A stretch of 60,025 bases of DNA, counting the filler, from Asterionella formosa (lineage: Eukaryota): assembly GCA_002256025.1 (NCBI GenBank). It is 10 parts of 10 records of this genome, joined end to end, with 100 filler letters (N's around TTAATTAATTAA, not from the genome) between each part and the next. Parts side by side here need not be neighbours in the genome. Positions count along the whole stretch, not along the records: positions 6,038 to 11,973 come from NKIB01012881.1; 9 more parts are not named here. One strand, 5' to 3'. The notes under the pieces are model-generated. The model ran no database searches, was not told the DNA's origin, and saw only the letters and a program-made list of their open reading frames with translations. This document shows, one piece after another, positions 5,938 through 54,700 of the stretch; the stretch's first letter is position 1, and each line of letters begins with the position of its first letter. Made by a program: the position numbers and the translations under genes.

Positions 5938-6037
5938 NNNNNNNNNNNNNNNNNNNNNNNNNNNNNNNNNNNNNNNNNNNNTTAATTAATTAANNNNNNN
6001 NNNNNNNNNNNNNNNNNNNNNNNNNNNNNNNNNNNNN
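5938..6037. other. Artificial contig linker (N44-TTAATTAATTAA-N44); also at 11974, 17997, 24010, 30010, 36019, 42026, 48027, 54027
   Basis: Identical 100-nt spacer with stops in all six frames every ~6 kb. Confidence 0.97.
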
Positions 6038-7170
6038 GGAAATCCCGCATGGGTTCGAGCTACCGGAGGGGGGTCGAAATGGTCATTGTCTCAAGATTCT
6101 GAAGAACATTTATGGTCAGAGACAGGCAGGTCATACTTGGTCCTTGCATTTGACTAAGGGGCTACTGGGTATTGGTTTCGTACAGAGTCAGGCTGACGAG
6201 TGTATCTACTATAGAGGAAGGACTATATTTATGGTCTATGTAGATGATGGAATTTTTATAAGCCCAGAGTCAAAGTTGATTGATGAATGCATCAAGCTCA
6301 TGCGGTCGATTTTTAATTTGACCGACGAAGGAGATATCTCGGATTATCTGGGTATTGTGACTTCCTCTCCTGTTGACTCCACCATATCGTTGACACAGCC
6401 ACACCTGATTGCCTCCATTGCCGACGACATTGGTTTTACCAACAAGACCAAGTCCAAGGGCGTTCCAGCGTCGGCCACTGTGATATTGCAGAGGGATCTT
6501 GATGGAGATGATTTTTCGGAACATTGGTCCTATCGCTCGGTCATTGGAAAACTGAACTTCCTTGAGAAATCGACTCGCGGTGGCAGTCCGAAATATTGTG
6601 CGTTACCTCATTGGCACATCCCACCAAGGTATTCTCCTGCATCCCGATGATCACTCTTTTGTGGTGTTGGCAGACGCGGATTTCTGTGGAAATTGGAACA
6701 AAGAGACAAGCGTTAGTGACACAATGACGGCCAAATCCCGCTCGGGGTATGCAATTACGTACGCTTCCTGCCCGGTGCTGTGGGCCTCCAAATTGCAGAC
6801 AGAGGTGGCTCTATCCACCACTGAGGCAGAGTATGTGTGTCTCAGTCAGTCATTGCGAGATACCATTCCGTTAATGCGATTGCTAGAAGAAGTAAAGCGA
6901 AAACTTGATCACAATGTGATTGCGGTGCCTGCCGTTCGTTGCACACTATTTGAGGATAATTCCGGTGCGTTGGAATTAGCTCGCACTCCCAAGATGCGTC
7001 CCCGCACCAAGCACATCAACATTAAGTACCATCATTTCCGTGAGTATGTTCAAAGGAAGCTCATATTTATAGAGCATGTCGATACGCAGCATCAAGTGGC
7101 TGACATGTTCACCAAGCCGCTCCCGTTGGCGGCTTTCCTATGTCATCGCAAAGCTTTGCAAGGCTGGTAG
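6038..7170 (+). mobile_element. pol: Ty1/Copia pol 3' part (RT + RNase H), frameshifted by an internal deletion
   Basis: KNIYGQRQAG, YVDD, YLGI, YRSVIGKLNFL, then ADADF, SRSGY, WASKLQTEVALSTTEAEY, EDNSGA, RTKHINIKYHHFRE, ADMFTKPL. The usual PDIxxAVHQCARF segment is missing at ~6578, where the frame changes. Confidence 0.95.
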
Positions 7171-7210
7171 TACCGGTATTCTTGATTTGGCGCAAGTTGC
7201 CTGCTCGAAT

Positions 7211-7605
7211 AAGGGAGTGTGAGAATTATGCATTTCTCATGTGCCCTTGCTCCCTGGTGCCAGGGGTGCAGTGCCATTGGGTATTCAAATGTTTGACGTA
7301 TGTGTGATGGTGAGGCTGTGGTATTAAAGTATCTGATGGGTTTCCGGGTCTCCCCCCTTCATTTTTGTATTGACGATTCGATTTGTAACTTGCTGCCGGA
7401 TTGGGTCCAAGCGGATGTGGTTGGGTCTCTTTTGGCAGTTGGTTGATGGCGAGTCATGCTGCGGTGTAGCGATTCTTCTATTGGCATAATAAGGGTTTTT
7501 GGGCGATGTGTTCAGTCCACAGTCAGGTATATCTGAATGATGAGGGTCTTCTCGTCTTGCTGCTGTTTGGTGCATGTTAGACAGGCTAGCGCGCTTTTGC
7601 AGACA
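7211..7605 (+). mobile_element. Polypurine tract and putative 3' LTR of the Copia element
   Basis: AAGGGAG (7211-7217) directly followed by TG (7218), ~40 nt after the pol stop. Right end (..GCAGACA, 7605) is a guess because the 5' LTR is not in the contig. Confidence 0.6.
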
Positions 7606-7746
7606 ATGCCCAATGATTATGAGACATATAATTGAAACTAGACTAATCTGTTATTGATTTGCGTCTTACTTTGGTTATTGTCAAACTGCATTTATTCGTT
7701 TGAATATTTGCTGGTTTCCCTCATTATAGCCTTATGCCAGTGTTTG

Positions 7747-8427
7747 TCAAGGCTGATTTACTTGCCGGCCGCTTCGACCATGGCGAGCACATCTTACTAC
7801 ACCAGCTTGACAATGACGAGAAAACTCAAAATGTTGGGTTGAAGCGATGAAAAACTTGGTTAATTTTTTTCTGGAGATGCCCAACGCTTTCCTGTCAGAT
7901 TTTTGTAGCTGCTGCCCAACGCTGGAAATATCAGTCCACCCATTTTCGCTCTTCAAGTTCTTCACGATACTTTGCAATTTTGCATAAGCAGTGGAATCAG
8001 GACTTGAATCACAGGCAGCGCTATCAAGGTAAACGAAGTGGTCACATGCGTTTCTATATTTCAGCAGTGTTTTTTTCATGCCAAACCCGATTACGTGCTT
8101 TCCGGACTTTTGAAGGTTCAATGCAAGTGGCATAAAGTCAGAGTCGGAGCTAACGATTGCAAAGCCGTCAACTTGATGAACAATTTCCAAGCCCTTCTTT
8201 ATAAGTGTAGCATCTACACTTGACTTCCCTGTGATTATCAATGGCGTTTTGACTTTGTCAAAGGACCATTCTTTAGCTTTCTTGTCCCACGGCTTGAGGC
8301 TGCCCGAATTGAAGTCTCCGAAAAGTAGACGAATCACAGCATGCCCCCCACAAGATTTTATTTCATTGAACACTAGATCAATCTTTTTACTCGAGATGTT
8401 GTCACAGTCAACTAGAACAGCATACAT
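7747..8427 (-). CDS. NYN-domain (LabA/DUF88 PIN-fold) ribonuclease with one C-terminal OST-HTH/LOTUS domain
   Basis: VDCDN, RLLFGDF, GKSSVD, IVSSDSDF, VIGFG, ACDHFVYLD with catalytic Asp residues intact; then LQSIVKNLKSENGWTDISSVGQQL..LGIS..KLTKFF (LOTUS-like). Confidence 0.88.
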   Translation of the reverse strand: MYAVLVDCDNISSKKIDLVFNEIKSCGGHAVIRLLFGDFNSGSLKPWDKKAKEWSFDKVKTPLIITGKSSVDATLIKKGLEIVHQVDGFAIVSSDSDFMPLALNLQKSGKHVIGFGMKKTLLKYRNACDHFVYLDSAACDSSPDSTAYAKLQSIVKNLKSENGWTDISSVGQQLQKSDRKALGISRKKLTKFFIASTQHFEFSRHCQAGVVRCARHGRSGRQVNQP

Positions 8428-9781
8428 TCCGCGGAGGTCTCGCTTAACGACGCTCCCGGCCTATCGTTGCTGAATAATTACTCGACCAGCACTACTAGGA
8501 TTCAAATACTGAATTATGCAAGGGGAAAACATGGTTGCCTTCTGTTGTTTGCGTTTTATGACCGGTTCCTTGTTCTGCATCCGTACCATGAGTGGAATTC
8601 AAACATCAAATTCATCATCAGTCAAAATCAAATAAATGTTCAGTCAGTGACTTCGTCAGAAATTGGTTGATCTCAAAAATCTTTCATAAGTCTGTCATTT
8701 CTACTCACTCATTTGTAGGCTTGTTGTTGGGATCAGTGTGTTACTACTACTAGCTAGACAAGCATGTTAACGTGTTCAATACTGCTTCATAAGTTGCGAG
8801 CTGTGAGCTGTCTACACAGTTGACATCATTTTCGCCAGTTAAATTTTTGAGTAATCATCCATCCAAATAGCTAATAGCAGTCGACCGCATAATACAATTA
8901 AGTGATACTGGAGTGCCCGATAGGTACCAGGTACCTAGGTGGTGCCACCTATGAGCTAGACTGAAAATCTTACGAAGTGCATATTGAAATTGAAATATTC
9001 AATTTATGTACCGATACATACAGGTAACACCGAAAGAAAGTACCGGTATCTGTTACCGGGAAAACTTAGGGGTACAGGAAGGTCCCATATGTAACGAGTA
9101 GAATTGCATTCGACCAGTTGATGTTTCAATATCATCGCTCACAGGATATACCGGTACCGGTATCCATATTAATCACTGTCGGAGAGTAGTGGTTTCCCAA
9201 GTGATAATTTTCTTGGATAGTCAGAATCGGATCTACCACTTGCAAAGCAAAACAGACAATGAATAATTTTTCAATGCAACATAATCCCTCGATGCGTGAT
9301 GTCGCCTCCTCCGATCCGATGCAATGTGTCCATTAAATCTTTTGGCATTATAACGATCGAATATTCTCTGAGGGGGGGAGGGGGTCGTGGATTCAAAAAT
9401 ATCACCTCTTACCTAGCCAAGTCTTTGACCCTTCTCATATCTTCTTTGTAGACTGCTGAAAATGTGGATTTCTCCTTGTGTTCTCCAGTAAGGCAGCGAA
9501 AGATCCGAGATTGCTTCAAAGAAAGAGGCAAGCTTCTTGTAAAGAATTTAACAATTAAATGTTTCAGCATTCAGTTTCCTTAGTTAGAGGTACACAAAGG
9601 AAGAAAAAGTAGCCGCAACTGTGTGATTTAGCAATTGCTTTTATTGACCTTCATTGCTTGAGTGATGATGTTTAAAGGTTCTTTATGATACGATCGAGTA
9701 TACCCACTACTCATAGTTATGGACGCCTCGTCGTCGATTGTCAGATGCACATAGCTATACAGTGTCTGTTGAAGACTATTT

Positions 9782-11746
9782 CTATTCGATTCTTTCCTTT
9801 TTTAGGCGATTCCTGACCTTTTCACTAATATTGGACCAGCATGCCAGCCCTGGAAATCGCAGTTTCACTTGATCACGTTCTAACACTTTCAGCCGGACTT
9901 GATGTTTATTTTTCTCAAAAGTGACACCAAAACGATCCGAGCACGAATTAAAAAAGGATGTAAGCCTTTTCGTTGTTAGCGACTGGAAGCCAATGCCCAA
10001 TGCAACTTTATCGAAATTCTGCAAACGTGATTTTACCACAAAATATGGAGTCCATCTGGATTTTTTAAATGCGCCCTCTTCAATAATATTAATTAGCCTC
10101 CCCAATGACGCTAAAGCTTCGTCTTCCAAGAAAGGAGGGGACGGATTCGCTTCCTTGTCATATTCGACCAGTCCTGGTGATTTGATACGCACACGATAAT
10201 TGTTAGGGAAGCTCTTGTTCTGTGACGACAAATCGAAGCTATCTGCAGATTCTTTTTTTAAATGAATCAGATTTTTGTTGGCACTTTTCAACTCATCAAA
10301 AAGCAAGGATCCTCCTTCTTGACTCACTTGATCACTCTGAAACGGTTTCAGCAAAATTGGATCGTTACTTCTGACCTCCAAAACGACACCAAAAATGTTC
10401 GATAACGTATCAAAGTGAGATGCAAGCTGCTTGCATGTTGGGTCCCTTTCGCGCCTGTAAATGCTCAACCTTTGTTTATCGATTCTCTCCAAATGTTTTT
10501 TGACCACGGAAAAATGAGTCCATCCATTAATATCTGTGCCACTTTCAATAATAGCTTTGAGCCTCTCAAAAGCTTCAAATCTTTCAACTAGCGGCACTGC
10601 ATTGGGTAACAGGGCATTTCTATCCAAAAAAGGACTACATGGACTTGTTTTCTCGTCATCTCCTGATGGTTTCATGCGAACATAGATGTGATTGATGTAG
10701 GAGCTATCTCCCTTCGTCGACAAATCGTAAGTTTCAGGGAAGTCATTGAGAAACTGAAGCAGAGTCTTATTGGCACTTATCAACTCATCCCTATCAGATT
10801 TCATCATGAGCGCTCCGACCTTCAACAGTCGAATCCATCCATAGGAATTCGAATGATTGTTTTCGATGATAAATTTGAGATTTACATGAAGTGGAGCAAT
10901 GTAATGTAATGGATGTGGGTGCTGCAATTGTACGTCTATTGGATCTATATTTGGAAGTTTCTGTTTTTCAGATTCTATAGCTGAAAGAGGTTTCAGGCGG
11001 ATCGAACCACGAGACACCTGGAAGACATCCCCGAAATTTTGGAAAAATTCAGTTCCGTTGCTTCTAGAAATGCCCAACTCCTTTCGTGCTGAATTTGAAA
11101 GCCTCGTAACAACCTTGGCAGGAGTAGTCCATCCCTCATTTTCGCTTGAAAGGACTTCAACAATCTTTTTAAGTTCGTCAAAGCCAGCGACGAACATATC
11201 CTTCCGCTCATCCTCGGTTACAATAGTCGCAACGTTGTCAAGGTAATTAAAATCGTTGCAAGCCTTGACAAAAGGCAATGGAGTCTGGTTCATTCCGAAC
11301 CCGATCACGTACTTTCCAGACTTTCGAAGATGCGATACAAGTGGTGTAAAGTCCGAGTCGGAGCTCACGATCGCGAAGCAGTCTACTTCCGGATGAATTT
11401 TCATTGCAGTGATCATAAGTGTGGCATCAACACTCGATTTTCCCTTGATGTCTGATGGCGTTTCCACCTTGTCAAAGGACCATTCCGAAGCTGTGAATAC
11501 CCAAGGCTTGAGCTTTGCCAATCTAAAGTTTCCAAAAAGTAGACGAATTTTAGTCTCTGCCCTACGCAATCTGAGCTCTTCGAAAACCAAATTGATCTTT
11601 GTACTCGCAATGTTGTCACAATCAACCAGCACAGCATACTTTCCTCCGATTCCCCTTTTTTGGACGCTCCCTATCCATCTTTGTTGAAATATCACTCTAC
11701 TACGAGGATACAAGTGATACTGAATGCCTCTATACGCGAAGGACAT
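9782..11746 (-). CDS. NYN ribonuclease with 4-5 tandem OST-HTH/LOTUS-like repeats and a basic N-terminal leader (654 aa)
   Basis: Uninterrupted ORF. NYN motifs VDCDN, GKSSVD, VSSDSDF, GFG..TP.PFVKACNDF. Repeated L+xII/VE...(G)W...V..+L units: ENEGWTTPAKV, SYGWIRLLKVG, INGWTHFSVVKKHL, SRWTPYFVVKSRL, plus one partial unit. Confidence 0.9.
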   Translation of the reverse strand: MSFAYRGIQYHLYPRSRVIFQQRWIGSVQKRGIGGKYAVLVDCDNIASTKINLVFEELRLRRAETKIRLLFGNFRLAKLKPWVFTASEWSFDKVETPSDIKGKSSVDATLMITAMKIHPEVDCFAIVSSDSDFTPLVSHLRKSGKYVIGFGMNQTPLPFVKACNDFNYLDNVATIVTEDERKDMFVAGFDELKKIVEVLSSENEGWTTPAKVVTRLSNSARKELGISRSNGTEFFQNFGDVFQVSRGSIRLKPLSAIESEKQKLPNIDPIDVQLQHPHPLHYIAPLHVNLKFIIENNHSNSYGWIRLLKVGALMMKSDRDELISANKTLLQFLNDFPETYDLSTKGDSSYINHIYVRMKPSGDDEKTSPCSPFLDRNALLPNAVPLVERFEAFERLKAIIESGTDINGWTHFSVVKKHLERIDKQRLSIYRRERDPTCKQLASHFDTLSNIFGVVLEVRSNDPILLKPFQSDQVSQEGGSLLFDELKSANKNLIHLKKESADSFDLSSQNKSFPNNYRVRIKSPGLVEYDKEANPSPPFLEDEALASLGRLINIIEEGAFKKSRWTPYFVVKSRLQNFDKVALGIGFQSLTTKRLTSFFNSCSDRFGVTFEKNKHQVRLKVLERDQVKLRFPGLACWSNISEKVRNRLKKERIE

Positions 11747-12073
11747 TGCTGTCTCTACCTTTTGTTGGTGTTTTGTGACGAATGGTGGTTGTTGTTGGAG
11801 AAATTATTTTGTCTGTTTTATGTACCGGATTATGGTCTTTTACAGTGTATTTTTTTACACCGGTACATGATAAATTTAGGAAAAAGATATTTGTTCCCCC
11901 TTCATTTCGATAAATCGTCCGTCCCACTAACCCTTATAATCAGATGCTACCTGGTACCATGGAAGAGTCTAGGNNNNNNNNNNNNNNNNNNNNNNNNNNN
12001 NNNNNNNNNNNNNNNNNTTAATTAATTAANNNNNNNNNNNNNNNNNNNNNNNNNNNNNNNNNNNNNNNNNNNN

Positions 12074-51797: not shown

Positions 51798-54700
51798 AGC
51801 ATTATGTAATGTGACGTTACATAAGTGGAGATCAAGCATCAAAAGAAGGCCACTGGGTCAAATGGGATGCGAAAAAAATTGATGAACGTGATGGTGTGAA
51901 GGAATGTGTTTTCTCTGTATGAAGTCNNNNNNNNNNNNNNNNNNNNNNNNNNNNNNNNNNNNNNNNNNNNNNNNNNNNNNNNNNNNNNNNNNNNNNNNNN
52001 NNNNNNNNNNNNNNNNNNNNNNNNNNNNNNNNNNNNNNNNNNNNNNNNNNNNNNNNNNNNNNNNNNNNNNNNNNNNNNNNNNNNNNNNNNNNNNNNNNNN
52101 NNNNNNNNNNNNNNNNNNNNNNNNNNNNNNNNNNNNNNNNNNNNNNNNNNNNNNNNNNNNNNNNNNNNNNNNNNNNNNNNNNNNNNNNNNNNNNNNNNNN
52201 NNNNNNNNNNNNNNNNNNNNNNNNNNNNNNNNNNNNNNNNNNNNNNNNNNNNNNNNNNNNNNNNNNNNNNNNNNNNNNNNNNNNNNNNNNNNNNNNNNNN
52301 NNNNNNNNNNNNNNNNNNNNNNNNNNNNNNNNNNNNNNNNNNNNNNNNNNNNNNNNNNNNNNNNNNNNNNNNNNNNNNNNNNNNNNNNNNNNNNNNNNNN
52401 NNNNNNNNNNNNNNNNNNNNNNNNNNNNNNNNNNNNNNNNNNNNNNNNNNNNNNNNNNNNNNNNNNNNNNNNNNNNNNNNNNNNNNNNNNNNNNNNNNNN
52501 NNNNNNNNNNNNNNNNNNNNNNNNNNNNNNNNNNNNNNNNNNNNCCTTACCAAAAATGGAAGCAGGACCAGCTGGTGCCGTTGTAAAGCTAACTATTTAC
52601 TATACTACCACTTGGTATGTTTACACTCCTTGCAAAACTTTACTGTTAATCATTGCCGATTTGTTGCTAATTCAGTTCCCAATTGGTATGTAATACTAGT
52701 CATAATGCCAAGCCGTTGTTGTAAATCATCAACCAAGAACTGGAGCTGAACTTGTGTTAAAAGGTGTTGAAAGGAAGGGTCATTGGTCATGCTGATACAC
52801 GCCACTAACAGATTGGTGTCACTCTTGCTTTGGGCAAGAGTGACTGGCGGTCTGTTCCACCACAACCAATCATACAAGCAAGATGAGATACTTGGTGTAA
52901 AAAGAATGAGCCAGGATCAAATCGTTTCTTCATTTTTTGAAATGAAAAGTATGCAGAGGTAGAATCCTTGAAGAAAGATATACGTGCTTTTTATCATTCC
53001 AGCTGAGGAATAGGATGATTGAAATTGCGATGAGCTCAGGAATGAAGTGTCATGGCGAAAAAATTAATTGTTTCCCTCAAATTTTGAGGTCCTGGCTTGA
53101 AGGGTGTCGAACCCTTTGATAAGCAGGTGAACGAAATTTTTCAAATACCATATAGGTGGTTTGACATGCGCAGAATATGGAATCTTGATTTGGAATGCAA
53201 GTTCATGCAAGATCAAAACCACAATTTTGATGATGTTAATGCTGATGCTGACATTTCCGACAATCATGATTTAAAGATGAGATGTCATTCTCAGCAAATT
53301 GGAGAAGTCAAAAGTAACATTGTAAGACAAAATTCGAAAGGTGCTGCTGGGCTTCCAGTCTCATGGGATAATGGTGACTGTAACATATGTGTATTTCTCA
53401 AACCATTGCCCTGCAACATGGCTATCTAAGAATTAGCCAATATTATGTGTATATTGCAGATCAACATTACAAGGCAAAGCCCAGCCACTATTTCTCGAGC
53501 ACCAAGAAAGATCGTACAGGATGCACAGAGTGTGGGAGTCGAACCCCAACAATTGTACTTATTAGCATTGATGCAAGTGCTATGCATGTTGGGCATGTTT
53601 TCCACTGGATGGAAAACAGCCATGAAGGGCGGGTTTACCAACCCTTCATGTTTCATCGAAAATGTCAGATTTGGCATCATCTCATCTGCAAGGAGATCAC
53701 ATCTTACATTTGTTGCTCAAGAACAACATGTTCCTCAGCAACCACTACTCATATTGAAATTTACCATCCTGACTTCAAAAATGTGATATTTTTTTAACTT
53801 GCACTTAATCAAGTTGACAGCTGTTAAAATATCAGGGGATGAGTATTTTATGACTCTTATATTTCCAGGACAGTGCCTGGTAGGTTATGTTTCGAGCGCG
53901 TGCTTCTAGTTACGAAAAATTGTGATTCTATTGACACCGAATTTTTGCCAAACAAAGGATAACATACAGATTTGCTACAAGCCGGCCGTCCATTTCATCA
54001 TTTCCGAAAAATATTTAAATAGGATGNNNNNNNNNNNNNNNNNNNNNNNNNNNNNNNNNNNNNNNNNNNNTTAATTAATTAANNNNNNNNNNNNNNNNNN
54101 NNNNNNNNNNNNNNNNNNNNNNNNNNGTTACTTCCATAAGATTGACGACCATCAGGGACTGGCGATCGATGTTGATTGCGTGGGGGTCCCGCCGACTCCA
54201 TTTGAGTGACAGCGAGCTTCTCGTTCGTTCTATTGGAGTTCTTTCAGTACACGCGCTCTTCCTTTTTCGGTATTACAGACCTTGCATCTCCTCTGCGAAA
54301 AGGGCGTTGGGTAAGGAATTGGATTGGCAGCGGCTGAGTTTTATAAAGGTCGATTAACTCAATTGATCTGCTAGCCTGAAAAATGCCGAACGTTTTGTCA
54401 CAGAGGATGTTGAATACCTGGCTTCTTGGCATATAATGAGGAGGCTAGTGTACCTACATGGTACAGCGTGTGGCTGGGGTTGCTTGCTTTGATGCTAGTA
54501 TACCGGTAGTATCGTAAATGGCACTCTGGGGTAGCAAATGATACATTTACTACCGGTACACAGAATCTGCGCAGAGGGGGATTATCTCATATATGTCCGT
54601 CCGTAATTACCAGGTACCGGTACTGAAAACATGCTACCGGCACTGGTATATTTCTGTACATTGGAAATGCTGCGTATGTAATGCCAAACGATGATCAGCA

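Follow-up and report, generated by a model that had tools for sequence, protein, structure and literature searches.

A tandem pair of paralogous genes in the freshwater microbe Asterionella formosa encodes proteins in which a NYN nuclease domain is followed by LOTUS-like domains, one in the short protein and, as predicted from sequence profiles, four full domains plus one half copy in the long protein. With moderate confidence, we read the pair as nuclear-encoded, organelle-targeted (probably mitochondrial) endoribonucleases, both localisation and activity being predictions. The pair is an annotation of a known domain combination and not a new system: the available parts of Anantharaman 2010 (PMC2848206, as 'LK-nuclease' plus OST-HTH) and Matelska 2017 (PMC5499597) describe LabA-like NYN domains (PF01936, NYN.COG1432) joined to OST-HTH domains, and place this fusion in eukaryotes too, mostly in fungi (260 eukaryotic members). 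The pair shares with those proteins the NYN subtype, the NYN-then-OST-HTH order and the conserved Asp residues, but adds a basic N-terminal extension and a protist or algal host, and its long protein has 4.5 LOTUS-like units where the bacterial ones are, in the passages available, 'single or duplicated'.

Gene layout and transcripts

The window (i.e., the whole stretch of 60,025 nucleotides analysed) is a chain of ~5.9-kb contigs with linkers (N/TTAATTAATTAA) between them, and both genes are situated on a single 5,936-nt contig (6038–11973). The host setting is eukaryotic, as a copia-type element shares this contig; Ank, LRR, ARM and trypsin ORFs were located on other contigs. The long gene (9782–11746, minus strand, stop codon TAG) is an ORF of 654 aa comprising an N-terminal extension, the NYN domain, the full repeats L1, L2 and L3, a half repeat and the full repeat L5. 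The short gene as assembled (7747–8427, minus strand) is an ORF of 226 aa with the NYN domain at residues 3–135 and one LOTUS domain at residues ~142–213. Across 210 aa the two proteins share 52% identity (E 1e-60), and the genes are thus co-oriented tandem paralogs, with exactly the outer coordinates that the earlier note had given them. What that note had observed was confirmed as a whole, and its interpretation survived in part: the NYN type, the internal duplication, the presence of RNA and the plausibility of an organellar role stood, whereas horizontal acquisition, the equation of the architecture with that of MARF1 and a link to transposon control were weakened or went unsupported.

Both genes were found in RNA libraries, those for the long gene coming from two studies and those for the short gene from one. 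Contigs of 1,848 nt (9798–11645, polyA library) and 2,545 nt (8978–11542) cover the long gene, and contigs of 866 nt and 744 nt the short one (spanning 7723–8382 and 7723–8291). Since all of these are colinear with the DNA and reveal no joints in either gene, the genes have no introns, as had been proposed. The 2,545-nt contig (run X9, from 11542 to 8978) outlines a stretch at 8978–9781 (minus strand) that is probably this gene's 3′ untranslated region, bearing in mind that RNA-library contigs cannot prove RNA ends. At the other side, RNA contigs from two studies stop at 11765 without a loose end while the DNA goes on, a weak hint that this position is the 5′ end of the long-gene RNA. Sequence variation in run X15 was unevenly spread over the long gene, in that all eight nonsynonymous differences fell within residues 201–499, while the NYN domain and the extension showed synonymous differences only.

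NYN domain and LOTUS-like repeats

Both proteins scored well above the Pfam NYN cut-off of 24.2 bits (73.9 bits for the long and 78.8 bits for the short protein) in the PF01936 search that the earlier note had called for. Together with an OST-HTH match and the colinear RNA contigs, the NYN match is the basis of the long-gene annotation. In the long protein the PIN-like domain spans residues 36–172 (11231–11641, minus strand; Pfam residues 37–169) and contains D42, D107, D130 and D132, which are invariant across a 73-sequence alignment. Moreover, the VDCDN, SVDAT and SSDSDF motifs occur in the long and the short protein alike, so that the acidic residues said to be intact are indeed so in both.

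The AF2 model of this domain has a pLDDT above 90, and structure comparison placed it closest to 5yaa (VIA Z 18.5) and 2qip (VIA Z 17.6), with the next match at 9.3; Foldseek likewise retrieved 2qip (E 3.3e-08). When the family profile was compared with PDB sequences, 2qip (Vibrio VPA0982, E 1.1e-07) was the sole solved structure matched by sequence, while no MARF1 chain appeared at E ≤ 1 when phmmer and the family profile were run against all PDB sequences. The likeness to the MARF1 NYN (VIA Z 18.5, rmsd 2.5, 138 residues) is structural only, with 15% identity to the long-protein domain (13–16% across comparisons). The domain is therefore of the bacterial-style LabA/COG1432 type, as anticipated, and the MARF1 NYN is matched by fold alone; the available sections of PMC5499597 assign the latter to a eukaryote-specific cluster (NYN.1).

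Downstream of the NYN domain, the whole long protein exceeded the Pfam OST-HTH cut-off (26.3 vs. 23.8 bits), but when the repeats were given singly only L1 scored (19.5 bits). Using 38 OST-HTH domains delimited by Pfam, we prepared a custom HMM and a profile; the five-repeat profile aligned to this 38-domain profile with an hhalign probability of 97.3% (E 1.9e-11). L1 (residues 189–255; 10982–11182, minus strand; hhalign 62.7%) has a pLDDT of ~90, and family profile A1 at its position retrieved 2kpm (E 5.7e-12) and 2kzv (E 4.6e-10). The remaining repeats are predicted to be LOTUS-like by sequence profiles. L2 (residues 286–362; 10661–10891, minus strand) scored 14.5 bits with the custom HMM, which gave at most 2.2 bits among 200 shuffles, and 95.5% with hhalign, while its AF2 model is poor. 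L3 (residues 390–470; 10337–10579, minus strand; 11.4 bits; hhalign 91.5%) has a pLDDT of 68–90 over most of its length and shows the order helix-strand-helix-helix-strand-strand. L5 (residues 545–623; 9878–10114, minus strand), a duplicate of L3 according to the duplication alignment, reached 3.5 bits against the shuffle maximum and 43.7% with hhalign, with a pLDDT of ~47–75.

Between L3 and L5, a half repeat (residues 481–525; 10172–10306, minus strand) copies the C-terminal half of L2 and marks the start of the internal duplication; neither the N-terminal helix nor the GW motif is present in it, and it yielded no family match when given singly. The duplication itself aligns residues 320–474 with 484–627 (35% identity, 159 columns, E 2e-19). 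The proposal that four to five LOTUS domains arose by internal duplication thus holds for the duplication but not for five full domains, one of the five units being a half copy. Structure prediction, which had been suggested as a check, gave a confident model for L1 but none that would confirm the fold of the later repeats; a model of the array alone had a mean pLDDT of 39.6 and no Foldseek match at E ≤ 0.001.

The array is also fast-evolving (38% identity to P0004, vs. 78% in the NYN domain). Within the 8-member family (support 99 in FastTree and 98 in IQ-TREE), no LOTUS-like domain was seen in P0020 and P0029, one in P0014, two in P0005 and three in P0004, against 4.5 in the long protein. 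These counts and the internal duplication show that the array grew from one LOTUS-like domain to 4.5 by duplication within the lineage, as the earlier note had supposed. Its equation of NYN plus many LOTUS domains with the architecture of MARF1 was too narrow, as the bacterial proteins P0008, P0009 and P0011 (Peptostreptococcaceae) combine a NYN domain with 4–5 Pfam OST-HTH stretches; several tandem LOTUS domains are common to MARF1, the long protein and some bacteria.

The short gene and its copia neighbor

The single LOTUS domain ascribed to the short protein was corroborated by the custom HMM (24.3 bits with the whole profile) and by hhalign (95.7%), although it remained under the Pfam OST-HTH cut-off (14.7 vs. 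23.8 bits), leaving the proposed PF12872 search positive for the long protein only. Upstream of the ORF, an N-terminal extension is interrupted (8428–8589, minus strand, with in-frame ATGs at 8589 and 8532) by an in-frame TAG at 8461–8463, and because of this codon the short ORF starts at an internal Met. The same position encodes Trp in P0014, a near-identical environmental protein, and a tblastn alignment of long-protein residues 8–246 onto 8514–7816 crosses the TAG; the P0014 sequence and this alignment indicate that the extensions of both paralogs are homologous. DNA run X1, possibly the source sample, has the same letters at the TAG. Since in this assembly its extension was lost to a nonsense codon, the short copy is either an allele undergoing pseudogenization or a form that has no targeting sequence. 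The earlier note had mentioned neither this codon nor the adjoining copia element.

On the other side of the short gene, 6038–7723 (plus strand) is taken up by a copia-type retrotransposon fragment, with RVT_2 at 6144–6650 (Pfam 42 bits), together with a terminal region of high copy number. Only 24 nt separate its end from the stop codon of the short gene, which lies upstream. DNA word depth is 25,000–195,000 over this region vs. ~800 over the genes, and RNA and DNA run contigs part from the window at 7721–7725. The element is an insertion beside the short gene that is missing, at 7723, from the transcripts of other populations, and the link to transposon control that had been drawn is one of analogy only.

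Clade, probable destination and proposed function

In the long protein, residues 1–35 (11642–11746, minus strand) form an N-terminal extension that has six Arg/Lys and neither Asp/Glu nor a hydrophobic core. It has a pLDDT below 50 over residues 1–31 in the AF2 model and resembles a presequence, making the organellar role that the earlier note had raised plausible. In a tree of 267 sequences, enriched through a search that took clade members as seeds, both genes belong to a 61-sequence clade (moderate support, 91 in FastTree and 81 in IQ-TREE). Of the 50 sequences whose N-terminal extension is at least 20 residues long, 38 are in this clade, next to 13 members without a visible extension; the clade includes none of the 13 named bacteria and one MMETSP transcript, which is its sole sequence of explicit eukaryotic provenance. 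The 38 extensions average 0.149 Arg+Lys and 0.053 Asp+Glu, whereas the mature parts have 0.119 Asp+Glu. Because 12 of the 38 look like signal peptides, the predicted destination may differ among members (i.e., plastid or secretory pathway).

The shortness of the extension in the long protein and the 13 members without one speak against organellar import. In the reading we favor, this 35-residue basic, acid-free extension would nevertheless target the protein to an organelle, in all likelihood the mitochondrion, where the winged-helix, RNA-binding LOTUS array would pick RNAs and the metal-dependent NYN (PIN-like) endoribonuclease would cleave them, serving either transcript-end processing or decay. 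Such a role would be functionally like that of the plant proteins MNU1/MNU2, on a different NYN subtype. MNU1 and MNU2 from Arabidopsis, mitochondrial NYN + LOTUS proteins according to the available text of PMC9181182, offer the best functional analogy: they are nuclear-encoded, as is this pair with its presumed organellar destination, and act in mRNA 5′-end maturation. The same text gives them two LOTUS domains with OHA and WW domains, the latter two being absent from this pair (no RRM, OHA or WW domain was found in either protein with Pfam at E ≤ 1), and a table in it confines MNU-type NYN-LOTUS proteins to seed plants, recording none for stramenopiles or alveolates. The available part of a preprint (bioRxiv 10.1101/2021.10.01.462782) did not find NYN + OST-HTH proteins in rhodophytes or chlorophytes.

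More tentatively, and with considerable doubt, the 61-sequence clade may represent a widespread, undescribed group of nuclear-encoded, organelle-imported LabA-type NYN-LOTUS endoribonucleases of protists and algae, convergent, with a different NYN subtype, on the role of MNU1/MNU2. In this lineage the array would have expanded perhaps to recognize organellar transcripts that are G-rich or structured; a preference of LOTUS domains for G-rich or G-quadruplex (G4) RNA is described in the portion of PMC7498356 available. For protist mitochondria and complex plastids, the catalogue of RNA-processing nucleases is poor. If the extension-bearing clade is organellar, it would point, for many algae, to a candidate endonuclease that forms transcript ends or degrades transcripts, and tandem LOTUS arrays on NYN domains would have arisen repeatedly (in animals, bacteria and protists).

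A less likely reading, though one to be taken seriously, is that of a cytosolic mRNA-decay or transposon-surveillance nuclease, with the array binding mRNAs or retrotransposon transcripts for the NYN domain to cleave. The layout does resemble that of MARF1 and of DNE1, an Arabidopsis DCP1-associated NYN endoribonuclease with NYN + OST-HTH and required catalytic Asp residues (available parts of PMC6294520 and of the above preprint, respectively), the genome harbors a very high-copy copia element, and the short copy as assembled has no extension. However, MARF1 is a cytoplasmic, P-body-associated protein with RRMs and 6–8 LOTUS domains (two RRMs and eight LOTUS in the seen part of PMC6294520), while this pair has no RRM and no sequence match to the MARF1 NYN at the above threshold; DNE1, found in streptophytes, is cytosolic, resides in P-bodies and has exactly two OST-HTH domains, vs. 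one and 4.5 here. Moreover, both paralogs derive from a form with a basic extension, which a cytosolic decay factor would not need, and the adjoining transposon, an insertion missing from the transcripts of other populations, makes no functional partner. It is improbable, too, that the proteins are non-nucleolytic RNA-binding regulators akin to cyanobacterial LabA in clock output, with a NYN domain that binds but does not cut. According to the available text of PMC5499597, none of the NYN groups within PF01936 had a member studied as a nuclease, that of PMC9181182 treats catalysis by the NYN domain of MNU proteins as undemonstrated, and between them nuclease activity is shown for no LabA-type NYN; nevertheless, the four acidic residues are invariant in 73 homologs and kept in both paralogs, the NYN domain varies only synonymously within run X15, and these Asp residues are required in the NYN relatives MARF1 and DNE1 (available parts of PMC6294520 and of the above preprint).

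A recent horizontal gain of a bacterial LabA-type NYN-LOTUS gene, followed by duplication and expansion in this genome, we consider highly improbable. The NYN domain is 35–47% identical to bacterial proteins, much as it is to the extension-bearing sequences that do not belong to its family; by sequence, its nearest relative of solved structure comes from a bacterium (2qip), and the genes have no introns. Against this, the family nests in the mostly extension-bearing clade with its one MMETSP transcript and no named bacteria, and its closest relatives have eukaryote-style features (proline-rich tails, presequences). The horizontal acquisition that had been proposed thus bears no sign of recency, while the clade as a whole may have come from bacteria or an endosymbiont in the distant past. 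Codon composition likewise does not point to recent transfer, since the GC3 of the genes (0.43) lies within the range of eight further ORFs from this assembly (0.36–0.48); two copia ORFs have a GC3 of 0.49 and 0.54.

NYN paralogs and their genomic setting

Two ORFs were found on the minus strand where the earlier note had placed them, i.e., a long gene at 9782–11746 (encoding the 654-aa protein P0001) and a short gene at 7747–8427 (encoding the 226-aa protein P0002), and both products scored well for Pfam NYN (73.9 and 78.8 bits, respectively, vs. a threshold of 24.2). Their proposed paralogy was upheld by 52% identity across 210 residues (E 1e-60). The acidic NYN residues are intact as well: D42, D107, D130 and D132 are invariant in a 73-sequence alignment, in which K103 and G149 (P0001 numbering) are the only other invariant columns, and the same motifs occur in P0002.

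The NYN domain was modelled by AlphaFold with a pLDDT >90, and the model's top structural match was the NYN domain of mouse MARF1 (5yaa; Z 18.5, rmsd 2.5, 138 residues, 15% identity), followed by Vibrio VPA0982 (2qip; Z 17.6, 22% identity), with the next entry at Z 9.3. According to Matelska et al. (PMC5499597), LabA-like NYN (2qip) and the NYN.1 of MARF1 constitute separate clusters, and the LabA-like type is recorded from bacteria and archaea and from 260 eukaryotic sequences, most of them fungal and usually fused to OST-HTH. An NCBIfam search returned nothing above threshold (sub-threshold TIGR00288 matches only), and the only clusters from the ESM Atlas were bacterial NYN/OST-HTH ones, at 0.87–0.88 and under its line of 0.9. 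We regard the molecular identity assigned here as highly likely. The gene pair is real and was correctly observed, and is a new representative of a known domain combination; what it adds to that combination is a lineage-specific LOTUS expansion and a likely targeting sequence, which is of modest interest.

The window consists of ten contigs ordered by falling length (5,937 down to 5,899 nt) and is not one chromosome stretch, its linkers reading 44 N + TTAATTAATTAA + 44 N (at 5938–6037, 11974–12073 and every ~6 kb onward). Since the contigs are artificially joined, adjacent 6-kb blocks of the window are not genomic neighbours, and since the gene pair is situated wholly within the second contig (6038–11973), that contig alone is its genomic context. 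Eukaryote-style ORFs on the other contigs include ankyrin, LRR, armadillo, trypsin and RVT_2 proteins. The ninth contig carries a 618-N run (51927–52544) that is entered by long ORFs on both strands.

A copia-type retrotransposon fragment (6038–7723, RVT_2 match), which went unmentioned in the earlier note, ends at 7723, 24 nt beyond the stop codon of the short gene. Its word depth in the DNA run X1 was 25,000–195,000 vs. ~800 for the genes (i.e., 30–240 times that of the adjacent genes), and contigs from other populations depart from the window exactly at 7723. One X1 contig links 7298 to 7562 via GTTAGGGTTAG, a telomere-like repeat.

The LOTUS-like array of the long paralog

The four units located C-terminally of the NYN domain in P0001 (L1, L2, L3 and L5) can be aligned among themselves and with the lone unit of P0002, sharing a first helix rich in Leu/Ile, a GW motif and a terminal V-R-L-K strand. 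An internal duplication was evident between residues 320–474 and 484–627 (35% identity, 159 columns, E 2e-19), as had been claimed. Since the duplicated block starts in the middle of unit 2, the copy comprises a half unit (residues 481–525) and then the full unit L5, and the four to five LOTUS domains counted before amount to four LOTUS-like domains, the fifth being a half copy only.

P0001 exceeded the Pfam OST-HTH threshold only as a whole protein (26.3 vs. 23.8 bits). Because Pfam on isolated units reported L1 alone (19.5 bits), with no match for L2, L3, the half unit or L5, a custom HMM was built from 38 OST-HTH domains in relatives (boundaries from Pfam), with a noise level of at most 2.2 bits among 200 shuffles of the C-terminal region. 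It scored the unit of P0002 at 24.3 bits (hhalign 95.7%), L2 at 14.5 bits (95.5%), L3 at 11.4 bits (91.5%) and L1 at 1.0 bits (62.7%), and the N- and C-terminal halves of L5 at –3.6 and 3.5 bits, respectively (43.7%). A five-unit profile matched the OST-HTH profile with a probability of 97.3% (E 1.9e-11, 67 columns) and gave no match to PDB sequences at E ≤10. The family profile at the position of L1 matched the NMR structures 2kpm (E 5.7e-12) and 2kzv (E 4.6e-10) of uncharacterised proteins, which we take to be bacterial OST-HTH domains.

In the full-length model, L1 (pLDDT ~90) and L3 (mostly 68–90) displayed the expected helix/strand order, while the fold of L2, the half unit and L5 was not confirmed, their models having insufficient confidence. 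An array-only AlphaFold model (residues 257–654, 4-row alignment) reached a mean pLDDT of 39.6 and yielded no Foldseek match at E ≤0.001, its weak rows being mostly winged-helix proteins (with TDRD7's 3rco at E 1.9); we consider this model and its Foldseek rows uninformative. In VIA searches with the full model the rows were taken up by NYN domain matches, and the winged-helix row 2jt1 (Z 7.8, model residues 183–360) was discarded as lying within the noise range.

In a Pfam scan of 45 relatives, whose selection favoured proteins with multiple matched stretches, NYN occurred in every one and OST-HTH above threshold in 43, with at least two OST-HTH stretches in 13 and at least three in 5. Multi-LOTUS arrays on LabA-like NYN arose in bacteria too, because three of these 5, P0008, P0009 ([Eubacterium] yurii) and P0011 (Peptostreptococcaceae), of 572–580 aa, combine NYN with five, four and five Pfam OST-HTH stretches, respectively. 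LOTUS arrays on NYN are no new principle. The earlier description of a MARF1-like multi-LOTUS array on a bacterial-style NYN holds for the LabA-like NYN type, but its MARF1 likeness is by analogy only: unlike MARF1, P0001 has no RRM (Pfam), and its NYN was not matched by sequence to MARF1 structures.

RNA-library cover and the interrupted short paralog

Metagenome runs of freshwater, lake or 'algae' type contain the gene stretch, as do RNA libraries. Four runs were compared with the contig, i.e., X1 and the RNA-library runs X9 (lake metatranscriptome), X11 (from the same study as X9) and X15 (polyA library). A 1,848-nt X15 contig was colinear with 9798–11645, a 2,545-nt X9 contig ran across 8978–11542, and the short gene was covered at 7723–8382 (X9) and 7723–8291 (X11). 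Because no contig joint fell inside either gene, neither has an intron, in line with the earlier reading. Compared with the long gene, X15 showed 15 differences (7 synonymous, 8 nonsynonymous), and all eight nonsynonymous ones were located in residues 201–499 (array) and none in the NYN domain.

RNA contigs from two studies stop at 11765 without loose ends where the DNA run goes on, a weak hint that 11765 may be a transcript start. RNA-library cover was absent at 8414–8809 and 11780–11973, where the depth of the DNA run was ~800–1500; as a further weak hint, these stretches fit transcription units. The data fit two separate transcription units, contigs alone being no proof of transcription, in which case the 3′ UTR of the long gene would be ~800 nt.

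Also unmentioned before is that an internal Met serves as the start of the short ORF. Two ATGs (8589, 8532) and a TAG (8461–8463, minus strand) lie upstream in the same frame; the letter of the TAG was confirmed in X1, which may be the source sample. The environmental short-gene copy P0014 (275 aa, near-identical to P0002) has a Trp at the position of this TAG, and its extension is homologous to residues 1–35 of P0001. That TAG might be a sense codon was ruled out by P0001 and its environmental copy P0003 (99% identical), both of which end at a TAG. Since the in-frame TAG is a true stop, the short paralog in this assembly has lost its N-terminal extension through a nonsense change. At the other end, a 4-nt deletion at 7764 in lake RNA-library contigs (other populations) puts the final ~10 codons out of frame and yields a longer tail rich in Arg, Cys and Pro, like that of a second short-gene copy, P0015.

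Origin, N-terminal extensions and putative role

Three observations led us to reject bacterial contamination of the contig: it also carries a copia element, a polyA library yielded a colinear contig, and N-terminal extensions are present. An exhaustive phmmer search retrieved 4,186 proteins at E ≤0.001 and just 6 at E ≤1e-30. Apart from the copies P0003, P0014 and P0015, the closest relatives are P0004 (NYN 78% identical, three LOTUS-like units, ending at the start of P0001's duplication), P0005 (NYN and two OST-HTH, 39.4 bits) and P0016 (a close relative of 188 aa, E 1.5e-39, 54% identity). A metagenome scan, confirmed against P0024 and for that reason limited to distant relatives, revealed no close ones, the best being 44% identical to P0001 in the NYN domain.

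NYN trees were built from 267 of 270 proteins, P0003, P0014 and P0015 being omitted because they nearly duplicate P0001 or P0002, and the set was enriched through a search seeded by clade members. P0001 grouped with P0004 (support 98) and then P0002 (95), within a family of 8 rows (99) nested in a 61-row clade (SH-like support 91). With a mixture model in IQ-TREE (114 rows: the 61, 13 named bacteria, 12 long-extension outsiders and 28 randomly chosen among the remaining 181), a single branch separated the 61 rows from all others (SH-aLRT 81), and the 8-row family was supported at 98. The only sequence explicitly of eukaryotic origin, an MMETSP transcript, belongs to the clade, and none of the 13 named bacteria does, names being available for very few matches. 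The GC3 of both genes (0.43) lies inside the 0.36–0.48 of eight other assembly ORFs, and that of two copia ORFs is higher (0.49 and 0.54). Neither the NYN tree nor GC3 gave a sign of recent transfer, and the suggestion of horizontal acquisition was not sustained in that sense; the 61-row clade as a whole may go back to an ancient bacterial source.

Of the 50 rows with an N-terminal extension of at least 20 residues, 38 belong to the clade. The 38 extensions analysed, those of P0001, P0014 and 36 clade members, are rich in basic and poor in acidic residues (Arg+Lys 0.149; Asp+Glu 0.053 vs. 0.119 in the mature parts). A signal-peptide-like hydrophobic core was found in 12 of them, and the remaining ones, including that of P0001, resemble mitochondrial presequences. 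An organellar role is tentatively put forward, at slightly under even chances: the extension would direct import into the organelle, the LOTUS array would select RNA and the NYN domain would cleave it endonucleolytically. Published work reports that NYN Asp residues of DNE1 and MARF1 are required for RNA cleavage or repression (bioRxiv 10.1101/2021.10.01.462782; PMC6294520), that binding to G-rich and G4 RNA is common to bacterial, plant and animal LOTUS domains (PMC7498356), and that the mitochondrial NYN-LOTUS proteins MNU1/2 affect mRNA 5′ ends (PMC9181182).

Other architectures were observed among the relatives. In P0020 and P0029, both of the 8-row family, NYN is followed by a proline-rich tail in place of LOTUS, and both tails end in a common FVADD..Y.EW motif. 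The clade member P0019 has a 122-residue N-terminal extension followed by NYN, a single OST-HTH and, at the C-terminus, a SAP domain (50.8 bits), an NYN-LOTUS-SAP combination of which we know no description.
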